Below are positions 2,683 to 60,385 of a DNA stretch of 64,000 nucleotides, one piece after another. A program made the translations under genes and the position numbers. A model generated the notes under the pieces. That model was not told the origin of the DNA and ran no database searches. It saw only the letters and a list, made by a program, of their open reading frames with translations. Source of the stretch: a virus; IMG/VR virus record IMGVR_UViG_3300023174_000003, positions 15,792 to 79,791 of that record; one strand, 5' to 3'. How positions within the stretch are numbered: the first letter of the stretch is position 1; every line of letters starts with the position of its first letter.

Positions 2683-3076
2683 TGTAATGAAATAACAAAA
2701 GGTCGTAGTCAACATGCCAATTACTAGCTTCATGCCTGGTAAACCACTTGACATAACTATTAAACTGCTTAATCTTTTCTTTAGATTCACAAGCAAAGAA
2801 TATACTATCACCCAGTGGCAGCTCCTGGATCCATGCCCGTAATTGACGTATGGCAAATCCGTGGGGCAACAATCCGGAAGTACCAGATAGTTGACTTGAT
2901 AATTTCTTTGCCCTTTTATTAGGTCTTTTGTTTAACCAATCATTAAGTTGGCGTTTACTTTTACTGCACCCAAATGAAAATAACCAGATGTAATTTTGAT
3001 CTACTTTTGACCAGGGCACAAGACGTACTTTAAATATTCCCTTGTTTGTCTTACAGGTCTTAACCTTGTATCTCAT
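2672..3076 (-). CDS. hypothetical protein
   Basis: 134-aa ORF, ATGA-coupled to the upstream gene. Confidence 0.6.
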   Translation of the reverse strand: MRYKVKTCKTNKGIFKVRLVPWSKVDQNYIWLFSFGCSKSKRQLNDWLNKRPNKRAKKLSSQLSGTSGLLPHGFAIRQLRAWIQELPLGDSIFFACESKEKIKQFNSYVKWFTRHEASNWHVDYDLLLFHYIKQ

Positions 3077-3996
3077 GAATTTGTAATAAGTGAATCAAAT
3101 AATACAGGTAATGAATCTTCTGGGCTTCTTTCCCGCTTCCACGCAGCTAGCCAATCAGCACGTGAGTGTTCATGAACCGAGTTAAAATCATAAGAATCAG
3201 ATGGTTCAATAATAAAGAAATCACCGCCTGACAAGATGTTTACATCTCCAACAAGCCAGGTAGAGTTATCTGGTACTGTGACAGTAGCACCTGTTCCTAT
3301 TGTAGCAAGTAACAAAGTATAGGCATTAAAACCTGAAGGAATTGTATAATTTGTATTAAATACTGGGCCAATGGTGATTGTATTTGTTTCATCAAACGTA
3401 GTCTCTGTTGCCAAAAAACTATTATCTAAATCTTCTAACAAAAGCAACATTTCCTCGGAAGGAAATTCAACTACAACACCCAAGGTATAGTTAAGTAATT
3501 CATTACGTGTAGTTGATACACATATCAAATAACTTCCTCTTTCTAAGGTGAAGTAAAGATCGTCACCTCTATCTAAACTATTTGGATTAAATGTATTATA
3601 ACGATCAGAAGCCGCCCCCATTACGTGGTCATTGTAAGGGTGATGAGGAATTGAATAACCAAAAGAATCATCAACACTATCTTCTTGGAATATCATCCTC
3701 CCTTGTATGGGCCCTAAGTTCAGGTCATAAGCAGATATTTGAATGTAGTTAGGACGAGGTCCGCCCTTCTTTGTAATTAACCAACAAGGTGTCGTTACAT
3801 CAACCTGGAACCAATGATTGTATGTACCACCACCAATACCACCATTTGAATATTGATTTGTATCAGCACGTCCAACAACTTTAGTTAAAGGTCCAAGGGT
3901 ACCCGTCAGCTCCCGCAAAGAAGTTTGGCTAAACGTACCTAAAACTAAAGGGTTTTTCTGGGTACGTTGACGTTGGGACTGGGATACCCTACTCAT
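3073..3996 (-). CDS. hypothetical protein (beta-rich, possibly virion-associated)
   Basis: 307-aa ORF within a minus-strand operon. Confidence 0.65.
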   Translation of the reverse strand: MSRVSQSQRQRTQKNPLVLGTFSQTSLRELTGTLGPLTKVVGRADTNQYSNGGIGGGTYNHWFQVDVTTPCWLITKKGGPRPNYIQISAYDLNLGPIQGRMIFQEDSVDDSFGYSIPHHPYNDHVMGAASDRYNTFNPNSLDRGDDLYFTLERGSYLICVSTTRNELLNYTLGVVVEFPSEEMLLLLEDLDNSFLATETTFDETNTITIGPVFNTNYTIPSGFNAYTLLLATIGTGATVTVPDNSTWLVGDVNILSGGDFFIIEPSDSYDFNSVHEHSRADWLAAWKRERSPEDSLPVLFDSLITNS

Positions 3997-4010
3997 TTAT
4001 AATTGTTGTT

Positions 4011-4703
4011 TTATTCATTGTACTCTGAATTCTCAACCACATCCAGTGGATGAGCAATGGTTGACTTCATGTCTTTACGGATTAGTGTTTGAATATTATC
4101 TCTTAGTCTGGTCTGACCAAATAACATAAGTTGCGCTGCATCAAATTCTGTAATAAACGGAGTAATTGACGCAGGTGGTGTTTTACGGTTCCAGCTGGAT
4201 ACCAGATGTAAAGGATTGACACAATCTTTGGTGCCACACCAACGGGTGACAGTAAGATTACCTACGTCTCCCCAGGCGCAGTGGTAGATTGCTTTGTGGA
4301 ACGAAATGTTTTCAGATTTTTGATTGCTGTAAAAAGAACGGTAAGAAGGAAAGCAAACTCTCCCTAGATTTTTACTGTTGTAAGTCTCAGCTGTCCAACA
4401 GTCAGACCATCCTTCTGGCTCAACACGCTTCCAAAGTTGAAGAAATTTTACCTTATAGTCTTCATGTATGAAATTAATATTGAAACCACAATTGTTAGAA
4501 AGAATTTTTTCTACACAGTGGTAACACCAATGGTTCTCCATATCTCTAATGAAGTGATTGTGAGGACATTGGAACCCCTTGTAGTACCCTTGTTCTTCTA
4601 ATGCTTCAGTCTCAAGTGAGTCTATGTTTGATAGGTAGCGGAAATTGGTTTGAGTCACAACAGTCCTAAGGGTTTTTGTGGGACGTAGCCTAAGGTTTGC
4701 CAT
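4011..4703 (-). CDS. Zn-binding protein with degenerate HNH-like C-terminal motif
   Basis: CPHNH..CYHC; GWSDCW..FHKAIY..RWCGTKDCVNPLHL resembles the phage HNH H-x-C-x4-C-x-NPxHL motif. Confidence 0.6.
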   Translation of the reverse strand: MANLRLRPTKTLRTVVTQTNFRYLSNIDSLETEALEEQGYYKGFQCPHNHFIRDMENHWCYHCVEKILSNNCGFNINFIHEDYKVKFLQLWKRVEPEGWSDCWTAETYNSKNLGRVCFPSYRSFYSNQKSENISFHKAIYHCAWGDVGNLTVTRWCGTKDCVNPLHLVSSWNRKTPPASITPFITEFDAAQLMLFGQTRLRDNIQTLIRKDMKSTIAHPLDVVENSEYNE

Positions 4704-14899: not shown

Positions 14900-16444
14900 T
14901 TAACGAAAAAATAAACCTTTGGCTTCTGATATGCCCAATTCAGGAATAGTCACTTGTCCAAAAGGTGTGGGAAATTTCCATTTACCACCACGTTGTCTAG
15001 CAGCTTCTGCTTGTTTAAATTTAGTTTTGCGTAATTGATTTTCATAGGCTTCTTGTCTTGGAGTTATTTTAGAAGATCCTCCAAGTTGAGAAACTACTGC
15101 AATAGGATTAGCCGTTCTTGCAATACCTAATCCACCAGTCACAATACGAGCAGCTTGTGGACTAACCTTGCTTAAGATACCTGCACCCACACCAATAATA
15201 GGAGCAGTAGCTGCACCTGTTACATAGTCTCTTGCTATCAGTTGTGCTGTTTTACCAAGATCACCTCGTTCAGTAGCACTTCTAAATTCTGGATCAAATA
15301 AAGGTATAGATCCTGCAATATTAGAAGCAGTATTAAAACCTGCGCCCAAAGGACCACGTTCTTGTAATATGTTTTTTCCAATTAAATAATTTCTAGTCCC
15401 AATTGTTTTTTGTAAAGTAGTAAAATCTGCAGCAGGTGTGGTATTTAAAGCACTTGGTTTAGATGCATCATACTTATTTAAAAATTCAGTATAAGGTTGA
15501 ATAGGAAGTAACCGTTCATTCCCTCTGGTAAACATTTGTACATTTCCTGTACTTGGCCCATAAGCACCCCTTACACTGACTTCTGTCATAGGCCCTGCCA
15601 AGCCTGTTTTTTCATATAAATTAGCTCGCCAATCAGAATCACCTCCAGGACGTACGTTTTCATAACTTTCTCTAACTGGAGTTAATTGTGACACAGAACC
15701 AAAAGGTTTTTCTGCTTGCATAATTTCAGATTTAAATCTTTCTAATGTTTCATTTTTTAAATTTGAAGGTATCTCAAAACCTTTTTCATTTTTCCAATCA
15801 CTTGGAGTTAACATTTTTCCACTCATTCGTGTGTATGGCACAGCTCTAGCGCGAATTCTTTCAATGTCTTCTTGAGTACTTTGACGAAGTGGTCCAGAAT
15901 TTGAAAGAGGTGTTCCTGCATCTTCAGCTAAAAATGCAGCCCTTGAATCAACATAACTTCTAGGTTCGTTAAGTAATGCTGTGATTTCTTTTGTATTTAA
16001 ATCAATAACATTTGGAGAAGTTTCAAAACCATAATCAACAGTATTTCCAGTAGGCACTCGAAAATCTTTTAGAAAACGTTGAGCAGCAACAGTTGGAGTT
16101 CCACTACCAGGGAAAGGAAGTGTTTCAAACTTCATTTGCCATGGGTTTTTAGTATTTGGATCAATAGATCCTTCAAGATTAATTAATTGTTCTTCTCCAC
16201 CACTTAATCCCATTAGGTCAGATTGTATAATTTCTCGTTTAATATGTGGTCTTTCTCCAGGTAATTTATGACTCTCAGCTACTTCACTTATAACAGCGCC
16301 TGGAGTATTTAATATTCCTTTGCGTCCAATAATATTTCCTTCTCCATAAAAATCAAGAATCTCTTGATCTGTAGTTGTATTACGAAGATAGTCTGTTAAA
16401 AACTCATCAGCTTTTTGTTGTAAATTTGTAAATGGATTTGACAT
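14900..16444 (-). CDS. hypothetical protein, possibly an internal virion protein
   Basis: 514-aa ORF with a Gly/Ala-rich C-terminus. Confidence 0.65.
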   Translation of the reverse strand: MSNPFTNLQQKADEFLTDYLRNTTTDQEILDFYGEGNIIGRKGILNTPGAVISEVAESHKLPGERPHIKREIIQSDLMGLSGGEEQLINLEGSIDPNTKNPWQMKFETLPFPGSGTPTVAAQRFLKDFRVPTGNTVDYGFETSPNVIDLNTKEITALLNEPRSYVDSRAAFLAEDAGTPLSNSGPLRQSTQEDIERIRARAVPYTRMSGKMLTPSDWKNEKGFEIPSNLKNETLERFKSEIMQAEKPFGSVSQLTPVRESYENVRPGGDSDWRANLYEKTGLAGPMTEVSVRGAYGPSTGNVQMFTRGNERLLPIQPYTEFLNKYDASKPSALNTTPAADFTTLQKTIGTRNYLIGKNILQERGPLGAGFNTASNIAGSIPLFDPEFRSATERGDLGKTAQLIARDYVTGAATAPIIGVGAGILSKVSPQAARIVTGGLGIARTANPIAVVSQLGGSSKITPRQEAYENQLRKTKFKQAEAARQRGGKWKFPTPFGQVTIPELGISEAKGLFFR

Positions 16445-51592: not shown

Positions 51593-51623
51593 TAGGCTAT
51601 ATTTAACTTAGTTGAATCTGGTT

Positions 51624-54161
51624 ATGCCCTCATATTTACATCTGGCGTATCGCCGTAATGCAAGGGCTGCTGCAAAGAATTACACAGTAAAACCAGCTGA
51701 TAACCTGGAGCTAGCAAAAAGAGCTAGAGAAGATTTTAGTTTCTTTTGTGAGTATGTAGCTAATAAGCCTCCGGCTGCCCACCACAAGGACTGGCACAGG
51801 CACTTTGTGACGGGTGAGGATAGTACATGCCTAAAAGGAATTGCAGGCCCCAACATAGACCTCCTGGGACCTCGCGGTTCAAGTAAGTCGACCACCCTGG
51901 GTTTGTTTACCGCATGGGCCATTGGTGTACATACAACTGCCAAGATGCCTCTGCAAATTCTGTACTTGTCATATACGGTTGAAATTGCGCGTCCTAAGTC
52001 TGCTGCCATTAAACGTATTATTGAAAGCCGTAAATATCAAGAAGTATTTCCTGCCGTAAGACTTCTTAAGAATGTAACAAGTAATGAGTACTGGTCAGTG
52101 GACCATAAATTTGCTGGCATTGAAAGCATCGGTGATGAAATGTTCACCTTATGTGCTGCAGGCTTAAAAGGTTCAGTGACATCCAAGCGATCACACCTTT
52201 GCTTAATAGGTGATACATTGGTATTGACAAATCATGGCAACGTTCCAATTGCCACTATTTATGCAAATCCTGCCGCCTACCAAATTGCTACCAGAAATCA
52301 CACCACAGATCAAGTTGAGTGGAGCAACGTGGCCGCAGTTACAAAACGTAATACCAAAGGAATTATTAGCATTGAAACAGAATGTAGAAATAAAATTCAA
52401 TGCACTCCCGAACACCCTTTCATTACGGCGGACGGAAGGCAAAAAAGGGCAGGAGATTTTAGTCCGGGGGAAACCATTGTCGGATTATCCGACTGGAGAC
52501 AAGTTGACACATTGCCTAAGTTGTCAGGGACCCAAGAAACAAACACAGAGAATTTGCACTACGTGTCACAAGGGAACAGGAGGGTTTGTGGTCCAACTCC
52601 AATGCCCAGTCTGTCAACAGCAATTTTCAATAGTTTCAAATCGTTTAACACAGCGTCTTTACAAAAAGCCTCAAACAATTTGCTGCAGCCATTCCTGCAG
52701 TGGACAAAAAAGAATAACACTAACAAAAAAACCTTGTCGGCATTGTGGCAAACTATTTCAACCTCAGAGTCACTTGTCACAGTGTTGTTCAAAAAAGTGC
52801 GCAGATTCTATGCATGCAAACAAAATGCAAGGAACTGGCAACGCAAATTACAAGCATGGTTGTCGGGCTGGCAAATGGAAAAAATTGCGCCTGTTAATTC
52901 TTGCAAGAGACTGTTCAATTTGTGTTGGTTGCAACACCTTGGAGCAAAAACAATTATTAAACGGCGGGCAACTGAGGACCAATCTTTGTGTTCACCACAT
53001 CGACCACAACCCCTTAAACAATATCCCGCAAAATTTAATCACGTTGTGCAGGCAGTGCCATGTAGCACACCATCAAATAACGGACAAAGCTGGGAGGCCG
53101 TCACCATTTCCAGAGTTGACTTCCTTAGCGAAAGAGAGGAGTTTGTCTATGACTTAGAAGTCAGTCATAGCAGTCATAATTTCATTGCAAATGGCTTAAA
53201 TGTCTTGAATTGTTTAATAGACGATTGTATCAAATCTGCGACAGATATAGCCAATCCTGATATACGTAAGTCTATGCAAGATAACTGGAATGCGGTTATC
53301 TCACCAACTATGTTTGAAGGTGGAAGAGCAATCTGTCTTGGCACCAGATTTAGACACGATGATATACACGCCACCACATTTAATGAGCAAAATAATTGGC
53401 AACAGATTGTATTGTCTGCAATTCAACAAGATCCCAAAACAGGTGATGAGCTTTCCTATTGGCCAGAGATGTGGTCATTGGAATACCTAAAGGAAAAGAA
53501 ACGGCAAGCACCAGTTGCTTTCTCTTTCCAGTACATGAATCAGATTGTCAGACAAGGTGAGTTGTCCCTGGCACCAGAGCTAATAGTTAAAGCAGAAATT
53601 GCAACTGAATTTGATACGCTTGGTATTGGTGTTGATCTATCTGCTGGCATCAAAGAAAAGAATGACTACACAGTAATGATTCTTGGTGGACGCATTGATG
53701 ACCGTATACACATCATTGATTATCGCCGGATGCGTGTCATGGGCAACCTAGAGAAATTAGATGCATTAAAAGAATTGCTTAATGATTGGTCAATTATTGG
53801 TAAAGATGATAACGGTAATTATTTTCCTACCTACGCAACTTGCGATATCTGGTCAGAAGCTGTCCAGTACCAGGCTTCACTCGAAGCTGATTTCAAGAGG
53901 ATTTGCCTTAATGACGAAGGTCTTCACAACCTCTTGTGGCATCCGGTCAAAGGATTCCGTGCAGATAAGCTGGCACGATTCAGAGGAATTATTGGCATGT
54001 TTGAAGAACGAAAAATTATCTTTAACCGTTTCAGGAACTTCACTAATCTCTTCGAGGAACTCACAAACTTCGGAGTAAGTGGCCATGATGACTGTGTCGA
54101 TGCGTTGGTTTGGTTGGTAAATGGACTTACCAAAAAAGGTAAGCTTCAGTTTGATTACTGA
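51624..54161 (+). CDS. terL: terminase large subunit, intein-containing
   Basis: Walker A GPRGSSKST; Walker B LCLIDD split by the intein; LGTRFRHDD; RNase H-like GVDLS..NDYT..HDDCVDAL. Confidence 0.92.
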   Translation: MPSYLHLAYRRNARAAAKNYTVKPADNLELAKRAREDFSFFCEYVANKPPAAHHKDWHRHFVTGEDSTCLKGIAGPNIDLLGPRGSSKSTTLGLFTAWAIGVHTTAKMPLQILYLSYTVEIARPKSAAIKRIIESRKYQEVFPAVRLLKNVTSNEYWSVDHKFAGIESIGDEMFTLCAAGLKGSVTSKRSHLCLIGDTLVLTNHGNVPIATIYANPAAYQIATRNHTTDQVEWSNVAAVTKRNTKGIISIETECRNKIQCTPEHPFITADGRQKRAGDFSPGETIVGLSDWRQVDTLPKLSGTQETNTENLHYVSQGNRRVCGPTPMPSLSTAIFNSFKSFNTASLQKASNNLLQPFLQWTKKNNTNKKTLSALWQTISTSESLVTVLFKKVRRFYACKQNARNWQRKLQAWLSGWQMEKIAPVNSCKRLFNLCWLQHLGAKTIIKRRATEDQSLCSPHRPQPLKQYPAKFNHVVQAVPCSTPSNNGQSWEAVTISRVDFLSEREEFVYDLEVSHSSHNFIANGLNVLNCLIDDCIKSATDIANPDIRKSMQDNWNAVISPTMFEGGRAICLGTRFRHDDIHATTFNEQNNWQQIVLSAIQQDPKTGDELSYWPEMWSLEYLKEKKRQAPVAFSFQYMNQIVRQGELSLAPELIVKAEIATEFDTLGIGVDLSAGIKEKNDYTVMILGGRIDDRIHIIDYRRMRVMGNLEKLDALKELLNDWSIIGKDDNGNYFPTYATCDIWSEAVQYQASLEADFKRICLNDEGLHNLLWHPVKGFRADKLARFRGIIGMFEERKIIFNRFRNFTNLFEELTNFGVSGHDDCVDALVWLVNGLTKKGKLQFDY
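52200..53210 (+). mobile_element. intein (337 aa) in the terL Walker B
   Basis: Block A CLIGDTLVLT, block B IQCTPEHPF, block F VYDLEV..HNFIANG, terminal VLN followed by Cys+1. Confidence 0.92.
52234..53157 (+). CDS. Zn-finger/HNH endonuclease in the +1 frame inside the intein (alternative start TTG 52477)
   Basis: CxxC..CCSxxC repeats; RDCSICVGC..LCVHHIDHNPLNNIPQNLITLCRQCHVAHH. Confidence 0.85.
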   Translation: MATFQLPLFMQILPPTKLLPEITPQIKLSGATWPQLQNVIPKELLALKQNVEIKFNALPNTLSLRRTEGKKGQEILVRGKPLSDYPTGDKLTHCLSCQGPKKQTQRICTTCHKGTGGFVVQLQCPVCQQQFSIVSNRLTQRLYKKPQTICCSHSCSGQKRITLTKKPCRHCGKLFQPQSHLSQCCSKKCADSMHANKMQGTGNANYKHGCRAGKWKKLRLLILARDCSICVGCNTLEQKQLLNGGQLRTNLCVHHIDHNPLNNIPQNLITLCRQCHVAHHQITDKAGRPSPFPELTSLAKERSLSMT

Positions 54162-58395: not shown

Positions 58396-60385
58396 GTGTT
58401 TATTGATAGCTAGTTCAGATCCTGGTAGGTGTGTCCTTTTAGGATTTGGTAAATAGCTACGTGATTACAGTTAAATTTTTTAGCAATCTTTCTATAAGAA
58501 AGGCCTGCTTCTTTAAGCGATTTAATTTGTACCACGTCTGCCGAAGAAAACTTTCTTAAAGATTTTTTCGGTTTCCCTTTACTGGCAAAACCGTTGTTCT
58601 TGTAGCAACCAGTCTCCCAAGCCCTAAGTAAGTTTTCTTGTTTAGTTACGACCTCAAGATTATCAACACAGTTATTACGCTTGTTGTTGTCCTTGTGATC
58701 GACCTGAAGTGAAAAATTATGAATGCCGTGAGACTCAAGGTTTAAATCAAGAAAAGCAACAGCCATTAAGACATGCAAATGAAAGCGTTTTCTTTTTCCA
58801 TTAACAAGAATTGAAACTCTGTCATATGCACTGGTTGAGCTGATTGGAAGAGGTATAAATTCTTCCTTATTGTTTGAGTCAAGTTTTTTCTCAAACGCCC
58901 TGCCCTCCCTGGTCAAGTAAAGGTTACCAAATCCTAATACAAGTTTGGGTTCCATGTTGTTGATAAACAATTTCCCAAACTATAACATACCTCAACTGAA
59001 CGCTCAGCGTTGTCACCTCACCGAGCAATCGATGAGTGAAAACCGGATGAATTCAGGGAAACCCTAACGTAAAGCCGAGGGCAATCCTGAGCCAAGCCAA
59101 TCAAGTTCGTGATTGGAAGGTGCAGAGACTACTGGGGGTAACACGCTCTTGTTACGTAATACCAGATTTAGCGTCCGGCATCCCACGTGGATGAAGAGAT
59201 AGTCCACCCCCTTAAGAGATTAAGGACCAGGAGAACGATTTTCCGAAGATTCTTGGTGCCGAACTGTATCGGCCCCACCCCGCATACATTTGCGAAATGG
59301 CTGTTGAGCCCGTGGTGGTCCATGACTTCACCCGCCAACCTGGCCAAACCGTTCAACTAGATCGCTATAAGTTCTGGGGTACTCCTGGTACTAAGGACAG
59401 CCGCGAACGGATTTCCGATCAAACCATCGGTACCGCCAATAGCCGTAACATCACCAAGGAAAAAGTCCTTGTGGTGCTTAAGGAATACACTGGTCCCGCT
59501 GACCCGTCTGATCCTACCCAACCTTCGACCTTTAAGATTGCACGGGAAACCCTGATTACCGCCCAACGTCTCCTTCTGGATACAGGTAATCTGAATATGT
59601 TCCACCAGTCCATTGGTTCACTGACCCTCTTGGACGACTACCGCCGGTGGCGCGACCGTGTGTTTATTGACGAACTTGCCAAGGCAGAAGCCAATGGTGA
59701 AGCTTCTACCACCCAAGGTGGTTACTACTTCCCTGCTGGTAAGACCAAGAACGCCTCTGGTCAAATTGCTTACACCACTGCTGAGTACGCAGCACAAGTT
59801 CAGCAATTCCACGTTTCAACTGACTTGTTGAACGTTGTTAAGGATCTACGCAAGCGTAACGTTCCTACCTTCTCTGATGGTCTGTATCGTTGCATTTGCG
59901 ATCCTACTTTCATGATGCACCTGCGTCGTGACGCTGACTTCCGTGAAATCGCCCGTTACTCTGGTAACCCTGGTCAAGGCATGTACATGGGTAACCCCAT
60001 GATGCCTAACAACGCTAGCTTCTATCAAGGTCCCCAAGCTGGTCAAGGTTACTTCCTTGCTGGCGAACCTGTGATGCCTACTGGCGTTCAGTTTGAAGGT
60101 GTGAAGTTCTACGAATCAACCAACTTCCCCACCAAGACCATTGCCGCTAGTTTCACTGATAGCCCCTCTTACACCAACCAAGAAGTTGCCCAAGGTTTCT
60201 TCTTTGGTCCCCAAGCAATTGGCGTTGGCGTTGGTGGTCCTAATGCTCAAGTTCTCATTAACAACAATGATGACTTTAGCCGCTTCATCATCTTGATCTG
60301 GCAACTGTATGCTGGTTTTGAAATCCTCAACAAGGACTTTGTTACCAACGGTTACAGTTTTGTCAGCGATGATGGCATTCTTTGA
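58396..60385 (+). CDS. major capsid protein, spliced: exon 1 58396-58407, exon 2 59234-60385 (387 aa)
   Basis: GGAGG RBS, then GTG TTT ATT GAT | AAC GAT TTT CCG gives MFIDNDFPKILGAELYRPHP; body has PGQTVQLDRY..LKEY..FEGVKFYEST..DDFSR, HK97/N4-gp56-like. Confidence 0.85.
58408..59233 (+). mobile_element. group I intron (trnL/IC3-like core) in the major capsid gene
   Basis: 5' exon ends in U and intron ends in G; IGS CGTTGTCA 59008-59015; P AATTCAGGGAAAC, Q AATCCTGAGC, R GTGCAGAGACT, S AAGAGATAGTCC; P3 CCGGATG/CGTCCGG. Confidence 0.92.
58410..58970 (-). CDS. intron-encoded HNH homing endonuclease (antisense) with C-terminal HTH
   Basis: HLHVLMAVAFL..VDHKDNNKRNNCVDNLEVVTKQEN; SYRKIAKKFNCN. Confidence 0.88.
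   Translation of the reverse strand: MFINNMEPKLVLGFGNLYLTREGRAFEKKLDSNNKEEFIPLPISSTSAYDRVSILVNGKRKRFHLHVLMAVAFLDLNLESHGIHNFSLQVDHKDNNKRNNCVDNLEVVTKQENLLRAWETGCYKNNGFASKGKPKKSLRKFSSADVVQIKSLKEAGLSYRKIAKKFNCNHVAIYQILKGHTYQDLN

Follow-up and report, generated by a model that had tools for sequence, protein, structure and literature searches.

A terminase intein of a freshwater cyanophage probably carries its HNH homing nuclease overprinted in the +1 reading frame

Can one stretch of phage DNA encode a protein-splicing element in one reading frame and, in another, the nuclease that would mobilize it? The question is raised by the gene for the terminase large subunit (terL) in a stretch of 64,000 nucleotides (nt), here called the window, which covers positions 15,792 to 79,791 of the IMG/VR virus record IMGVR_UViG_3300023174_000003. 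Positions given below are those of the window, and features lie on its + strand unless stated otherwise. The record is complete (79,791 base pairs) and belongs to an S-EIV1-like freshwater cyanophage; among cultured phages, the freshwater Synechococcus phage S-EIVl is the closest to it, with 72% nt identity across terL. The initial annotation of the window, made from the letters alone, proposed that terL contains an intein whose homing endonuclease is written in the +1 frame. Our follow-up makes it likely that the terL intein is dual coding, with a splicing Hint domain in frame 0 and an HNH homing nuclease in the +1 frame that is made separately by internal initiation.

The terL precursor is an open reading frame (ORF) of 849 codons (51612-54161 in the ORF list, starting at TTG 51612 or ATG 51624), and its product matches the terminase large subunit family PHROG 38 (3.3e-72) as well as Pfam Terminase_6C. 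A class 1 intein of 337 codons (52200-53210; terL codons 197-533) interrupts the Walker B motif of this product. In an alignment of TerL with 39 relatives, the N-extein (51612-52199) ends with SKRSHL right before the Walker B residues, the C-extein (53211-54161) begins with the Walker B sequence CLIDD and bears the TerL nuclease domain, to which the Terminase_6C match belongs, and intein-less relatives read SKRSHL-V/C-x-IDD across the junction. For comparison, we assembled 38 IMG/VR loci that were found with the +1 protein, S-EIVl, and the window itself, which together gave 28 different full-length inteins spanning 57-99.8% nt identity. In all 28, terL is a single 849-codon ORF rather than the two ORFs of a split intein.

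Frame 0 has the hallmarks of a splicing domain. The intein scores 51.1 bits against Pfam Intein_splicing (PF14890; cut-off, 35.8), which confirms the splicing blocks recognized in the initial annotation. It begins with CLIGDT, carries T-P-E-H in block B and VYDLEV in block F, and ends with VLN (HNFIANGLNVLN) directly ahead of Cys+1. The residues C1, T69xxH72, N337, and Cys+1 do not vary among 15 representatives, and every intein-bearing allele has Cys+1. In the structural model, an N-terminal Hint lobe with blocks A and B (residues 1-98; 52200-52493) and a C-terminal lobe with blocks F and G (residues 296-337; 53085-53210) are predicted with confidence (pLDDT, the score predicted for the local distance difference test, 72-91 over both lobes and 86-88 in the C-terminal one), and in a Foldseek comparison they match the Ssp and Npu DnaB mini-inteins at an E-value of 3e-7 and a root mean square deviation (rmsd) of 1.6 Å. 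Between the lobes lies a stop-free spacer (residues 99-295; 52494-53084) whose protein sequence is unconserved, as judged by pLDDT, substitution rates, and codon shuffling. Its 197 residues have a pLDDT of about 30 and no secondary structure, they have no family match in Pfam or PHROG searches, and they can hardly be aligned as protein among the relatives even though the alignment is gap-free. The view that the centre of the frame-0 product lacks endonuclease motifs thus held. The conserved blocks, together with the essentiality of TerL, suggest that the intein splices by the class 1 route.

The +1 frame encodes a very different protein. At its largest extent the +1 ORF has 307 codons (52234-53157 in the ORF list; open in 27 of the 28 relatives), and its stop codon (53155-53157) falls within the block F codons that encode VYDLEV. 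The product matches 15 PHROG HNH families (best, 3.3e-9), in agreement with the zinc fingers and HNH motif of the initial annotation; a relative (P0008) carries PF01844. Mean column identity in the alignment of the +1 products is 73%. Zinc-ribbon repeats (52513-52869) are marked by the invariant cysteine pairs C85/C88, C99/C102, C115/C118, C142/C146, C159/C162, and C176/C180. They are followed by an HNH (beta-beta-alpha-metal) domain (residues 204-298; 52870-53154), in which C221xxC224, C243-x-H245-H246, N258, and C263xxC266-H267 are invariant and the ratio of nonsynonymous to synonymous rates (dN/dS) is 0.07. The model of the +1 product has a mean pLDDT of 77, and with VIA-align its HNH domain superimposes on that of EcoKMcrA over 86 residues (Z, 8.5; rmsd, 3.3 Å); the next matches are the HNH domains of IscB, Cap5, GVE2, and Cas9, with Z scores of 5.5-6.4. 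A Foldseek search of the PDB with the whole model returned HNH proteins throughout, at weak E-values (best, 2.3e-3), so that the VIA-align match is the clearer one. AlphaFold also predicts a confident beta domain (pLDDT, 82-92) for residues 15-75 of the +1 product, which are encoded at about 52309-52485, in DNA that also codes for the Hint N-lobe. A protein atlas search with this N-terminal beta domain gave no usable match, and in both fold searches with the whole model the HNH domain took up the list of matches. Two folds are therefore modelled from this DNA, one in each frame.

Both frames are maintained, and selection switches from one to the other along the intein. The MAFFT alignment of the 28 inteins contains no insertion or deletion (indel). 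In frame 0 none of them has a stop; in the +1 frame, 27 are open between about 52252 and 53155. The +2 frame holds 26 stops in the cyanophage intein itself and 21-29 across the set. When the synonymous codons of the +1 ORF were shuffled 20,000 times and frame-0 stops were counted in 52470-53099, the mean was 10.3 stops, compared with none observed, and not a single shuffle was stop-free (0/20,000). Nei-Gojobori estimates over the 15 representatives indicate where each frame is selected. Frame 0 is selected at the two ends of the intein, with dN/dS values of 0.22 in frame 0 and 1.0 in the +1 frame at 52200-52289, and of 0.19 and 1.48, respectively, at 53155-53210. The +1 frame is selected in the long centre (52470-53099), where it has values of 0.07-0.24 against 1.0-2.4 in frame 0. 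In between, at 52290-52469, the ratio is about 1.2 in frame 0 and 0.4 in the +1 frame; here dS in frame 0 falls to 0.28, from 1.49, and dN in that frame does not change, which indicates that two constrained frames overlap. For the +1 ORF, dN/dS is 0.07-0.43, and the codon-phase pattern switches near 52305 and returns near 53130. Selection on both frames, which the initial annotation had deduced from their openness alone, is borne out by these tests, as is conservation of the +1 frame, whose absence would have spoken against it. A stop codon in frame 0, or an indel of a length not divisible by three, would be lethal because TerL is essential, and the centre would therefore be held open while its protein sequence otherwise drifts.

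Where does the nuclease begin? A GGGGG-N6-TTG is indeed present at 52466-52479, as noted when the locus was first described, and its TTG at 52477 had been put forward as the start. We rejected this candidate: the TTG is missing from 9 of the 28 inteins, and the +1 constraint sets in about 170 nt upstream of it, near 52305 in the N-terminal lobe. Because both this constraint and the beta domain begin at about 52305, the +1 ORF overlaps some 60-78 codons of the N-terminal splicing lobe. All 28 inteins have an ATG, GTG, or TTG between 52234 and 52285; the commonest candidate is ATG 52261, and TTG 52285 and TTG 52315 are nearly universal. The most likely start appears to be ATG 52261, which would yield a protein of 298 amino acids (aa), and gene callers applied to short contigs report stand-alone +1 products of 296-300 aa.

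We propose the following course of events. The ribosome would read all 337 intein codons in frame 0, the Hint lobes (residues 1-98 and 296-337) would fold around the disordered loop of 197 residues, and splicing through Cys1, TxxH, Asn337, and Cys+1 would release a terminase of 512 aa. From the same DNA, the +1 frame would give a protein of about 280-298 aa that consists of a small beta domain, zinc ribbons, and a C-terminal HNH domain, most likely by internal initiation between 52234 and 52315, most often at ATG 52261. This nuclease would most likely cut intein-less terL genes during coinfection, and repair would copy the element into them, which is homing. Internal initiation is our best guess for the mode of synthesis.

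Several observations weigh against this proposal. Synthesis of the +1 protein, its cutting of DNA, and the splicing of the intein are all inferred rather than directly evidenced. The +1 product reaches only 18 bits against Pfam HNH_3, under the cut-off of 24.8. The penultimate residue of the intein is Leu, as first reported, and it is Leu, Gly, or Ser among the relatives, with His retained by the Brucella, Clown, and Ralstonia homologues described below. A penultimate His aids Asn cyclization in many inteins and is common, though not universal. None of the candidate +1 starts has a Shine-Dalgarno (SD) motif, and no single start codon is common to all 28 inteins. A search for an internal promoter or terminator found no promoter-like site on the + strand, with counts at or below those in shuffled sequences, and RNA folding around the candidate starts is not unusual (z = -0.9). 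The lack of an SD motif weighs little, because, of the 42 window ORFs of at least 150 aa, only 10 show a 4-nt SD core in the 20 nt upstream of their first ATG; initiation in this phage seems to be largely SD independent.

The alternative that survives best is an unlikely one, namely, that a programmed +1 frameshift early in the intein fuses the TerL N-extein and a few intein residues to the HNH protein. It would account for a +1 frame that has no stop from about 52228 to the onset of constraint at about 52305, for the want of a conserved ribosome-binding site before any start, and for three relatives whose +1 frame is already open at the first intein codon. However, in the interval 52226-52305 the relatives' alignment holds no conserved slippery or shifty codon and no stop-hungry context, and every relative keeps an ATG, GTG, or TTG there. 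Gene callers recover a stand-alone protein, and in the Brucella homologue stops interrupt the +1 frame up to intein nt 277 and are directly followed by AAGGAG, 3 nt, and a GTG start after the N-lobe, which would give a protein of 228 aa. A separately initiated nuclease fits these observations better than a fusion does.

If the +1 protein is a homing nuclease, the element should come and go among close relatives, and this is what we found. The presumed homing site is the extein junction CACCTT/TGTTTAATAGAC (52194-53222), which is uninterrupted in relatives. We examined the 80 closest relatives of the terL C-extein in IMG/VR, with 87-99% aa identity. Five carry the same intein, 69 lack it and have Val at the +1 position, and 6 have the exact empty Cys site HL/CLIDD. 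A C-extein tree calls for the intein to have been gained or lost at least five times, and in two sets intein-plus and intein-minus members share identical C-exteins. Decay variants exist as well: L010 has a single +1 nonsense codon (window equivalent, 52651), and L038 and L039 share a 378-nt in-frame deletion (52514-52891) that removes the zinc ribbons, plus a +1 stop; frame 0 is open in all three. The intein thus looks mobile, and presence, absence, and decay together make up, as far as comparison of the loci can tell, the classic homing cycle. The initial proposal of a mobile element with an overprinted HNH protein is in this respect upheld by the comparative evidence.

The six empty-site alleles (L044, L045, L046, L048, L049, and L051; C-extein identity, 95-98% aa) bear a different insertion of 378 aa in the P-loop (GPRG/...SHN/SAKST; e.g., L044:776-3448), which matches Pfam LAGLIDADG_3 (25.8 bits) and, weakly, Hint_2. 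Near-identical terL genes alternate between two different inteins.

The same distribution bears on a second alternative, slightly less probable than the frameshift, in which the +1 HNH protein has been domesticated to work with the terminase, as do the HNH proteins that help in cos cleavage, and persists because packaging needs it. Strong purifying selection on the HNH domain and its location inside terL would suit such a role, and the authors of a brucellaphage paper raised a functional link to the terminase (PMC4422536). Yet 69 of the 80 closest TerL relatives do without intein and HNH alike, identical C-exteins occur with and without the element, and copies with an HNH nonsense codon or the 378-nt deletion persist with frame 0 intact. 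In addition, the ends of the virus record are direct terminal repeats. Such repeats usually signal terminally redundant rather than cos genome ends. The pattern of sporadic presence and decay, being that of a homing cycle, argues against a packaging role and is in keeping with a homing nuclease.

How far does this arrangement extend? Searches with the +1 protein also reach terL in Brucella Tb-group phages, Gordonia phage Clown, Ralstonia phage RS-CA1, and a contig (L123). In these four other groups the match is offset by 1 mod 3 from the terL frame, the intein sits at the same Walker B site, and frame 0 is stop-free. Across lineages, local alignment scores are 115-125 for the N-lobe and 151-214 for the centre in the +1 frame, compared with 27-42 for the centre in frame 0, and the +1 products of the Brucella, Ralstonia, Gordonia, and cyanobacterial phages share 27-36% aa identity, with none in frame 0. 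Because the lobes resemble one another in frame 0, whereas the centres do so only in the +1 frame, the +1 phase would be ancestral to this intein family, and the long upstream overlap would be a trait of the cyanophage and L123 branches, since the Brucella ORF starts just after the N-lobe. A broader and more tentative reading, to which we give somewhat less than even chances, is that about 60 codons (52305-52493, delimited by the dS drop and the phase switch) encode two folds, the Hint N-lobe including block B and the overprinted beta domain; that the +1 phase is ancient and has spread horizontally across hosts of at least four phyla; and that the nuclease ORF grew upstream in the cyanophage and L123 branches.

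Contig L123 (2391-4979), from an otherwise unrelated IMG/VR phage, has a terL Walker B intein with a zinc-ribbon HNH ORF of 344-360 aa in the +1 frame (2953-4035), which corresponds to profile match P0010 and likewise overlaps the N-terminal splicing lobe. For another profile match, P0012, the related-locus search found no viral locus. Direct translation of Gordonia phage Clown (L003, NC_055867 1817-4576) places its HNH protein, homologous to that of the cyanophages, in the +1 frame. In Brucella phage EF4 (MT002975.1), two "putative terminase large subunit" features lie under the HNH match, a sign that terL may be divided at the intein by some annotators.

The extent of conservation makes a third alternative very improbable, that the +1 ORF is a relic of an in-frame HNH nuclease that slipped out of frame and, though unexpressed, has not yet decayed. 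Some copies are decaying (L010, L038, and L039), and expression of the +1 frame is something we infer only. Against this stand a +1 dN/dS of 0.07-0.24 among lineages whose nt identity is as low as 57% and the same +1 phase in cyanobacterial, Brucella, Ralstonia, and Gordonia phages. A profile search with the +1 protein returned 9,887 proteins at E ≤ 1e-3, and the top 150 of these are all 96-597 aa long and include no long in-frame fusion of the HNH domain; nor did an in-frame fused HNH domain appear among proteins of 539-2000 aa, although this is weak evidence. Such a record is compatible with a stand-alone nuclease gene that invaded a mini-intein. The last alternative, in which two compensating assembly indels at the short G and A runs near 52441-52470 hide an ordinary in-frame HNH intein, is refuted by the comparative data, since 28 different assemblies and four isolate groups share one phase without an indel and a noncoding frame-0 centre would hold about 10 stops.

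An out-of-frame HNH layout in terL inteins has already been reported, and the cyanophage element adds a member; the novelty implied by the initial annotation was overrated. A 2015 paper described the HNH protein of the brucellaphage terL intein as out of frame (PMC4422536), and GenBank records of brucellaphages annotate the nested HNH protein as a separate coding sequence (e.g., p0219_08). The Brucella Tb/Pr group and the cyanophage share the host gene, the Walker B site (AD/C...HN/CVIIDD in Brucella), homologous Hint lobes in frame 0, and a homologous zinc-ribbon HNH protein (36% identity; E, 9e-9) in the +1 frame, and in Brucella, too, frame 0 is stop-free, with 21 stops in the +2 frame. The two differ in that the cyanophage ORF extends into the N-lobe by about 190 nt and encodes an extra beta domain, and in that the penultimate residue is Leu, Gly, or Ser instead of His. 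The cyanophage ORF also stops 53 nt before the end of the intein, whereas that of Brucella ends within 11 nt of it.

Out-of-frame and antisense nucleases in phage inteins were surveyed in 2025, and invasion of the intein by a free-standing nuclease gene was proposed (bioRxiv 10.1101/2025.01.02.630785). Like the element described here, the inteins of that actinophage survey, many of them in terL, have a nuclease in another frame or strand between the splicing blocks and an in-frame centre with no recognizable structure. The out-of-frame class of the survey is, however, endonuclease VII-like and in "frame 3," in contrast to the zinc-ribbon HNH family in the +1 frame that extends beyond actinophages; the survey table lists the Clown nuclease only as "HNH," with other entries flagged as out of frame. 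Arsenault et al. (2025) described hidden out-of-frame HNH proteins without splicing domains and discussed SD-less initiation (PMC11855218). Their ShiLan-type methylase insertions resemble the cyanophage element in being stop-free in the host frame, but they have no splicing domain and are thought to stay as a protein loop, whereas here the insert lies between clear Hint lobes. Another parallel comes from fractured genes (Dassa et al. 2009, PMC2677866), with a nuclease translated apart from the splicing domain and an invasion model for its origin; there the host gene is in two ORFs and is trans-spliced, and here one continuous ORF is kept, with overprinting in place of the break. Canonical inteins with an in-frame HNH or LAGLIDADG nuclease share the class 1 Hint domain, the position of the nuclease between blocks B and F, and the homing-decay cycle, but their nuclease is part of the intein polypeptide, and that of the cyanophage would be separate. 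The title of a 2026 preprint announces an out-of-frame nuclease in a cyanobacterial dnaX intein (10.64898/2026.09.14.751524). Our literature search found no paper that mentions the element of the S-EIV1 lineage.

Elsewhere in the window, a group I intron (58983-59226; Rfam RF00028, 88.7 bits against a cut-off of 50 bits) sits just upstream of a major capsid-like ORF (59297-60385). Next to it, on the opposite strand, an ORF of 186 aa (58410-58970) looks HNH-like by eye. The region 58410-59226 would be a second nuclease-bearing selfish element among the late genes.

The terL intein is a clean natural case of one gene nested in another: the first of the two frames has only to remain open, and the second must encode an enzyme. 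The constraint that dual coding imposes can be measured unusually well here, thanks to 28 gap-free variants, empty sites, decay products, and a cultured relative, S-EIVl, which grows on Synechococcus PCCC-A2c. To the cases known before, this analysis adds a quantitative account of frame-switching selection without indels and of an overlap with the catalytic N-lobe, as well as natural empty and decayed alleles and a +1 phase common to phages whose hosts differ widely. The nested ORF escapes gene callers and yielded only 6 predicted proteins among 5.8 billion, and surveys that read only the intein frame therefore misclassify such elements as nuclease-less or as having an "unknown domain." The data set is suited to a test of the model of intein origin in which splicing came first and the nuclease invaded later.

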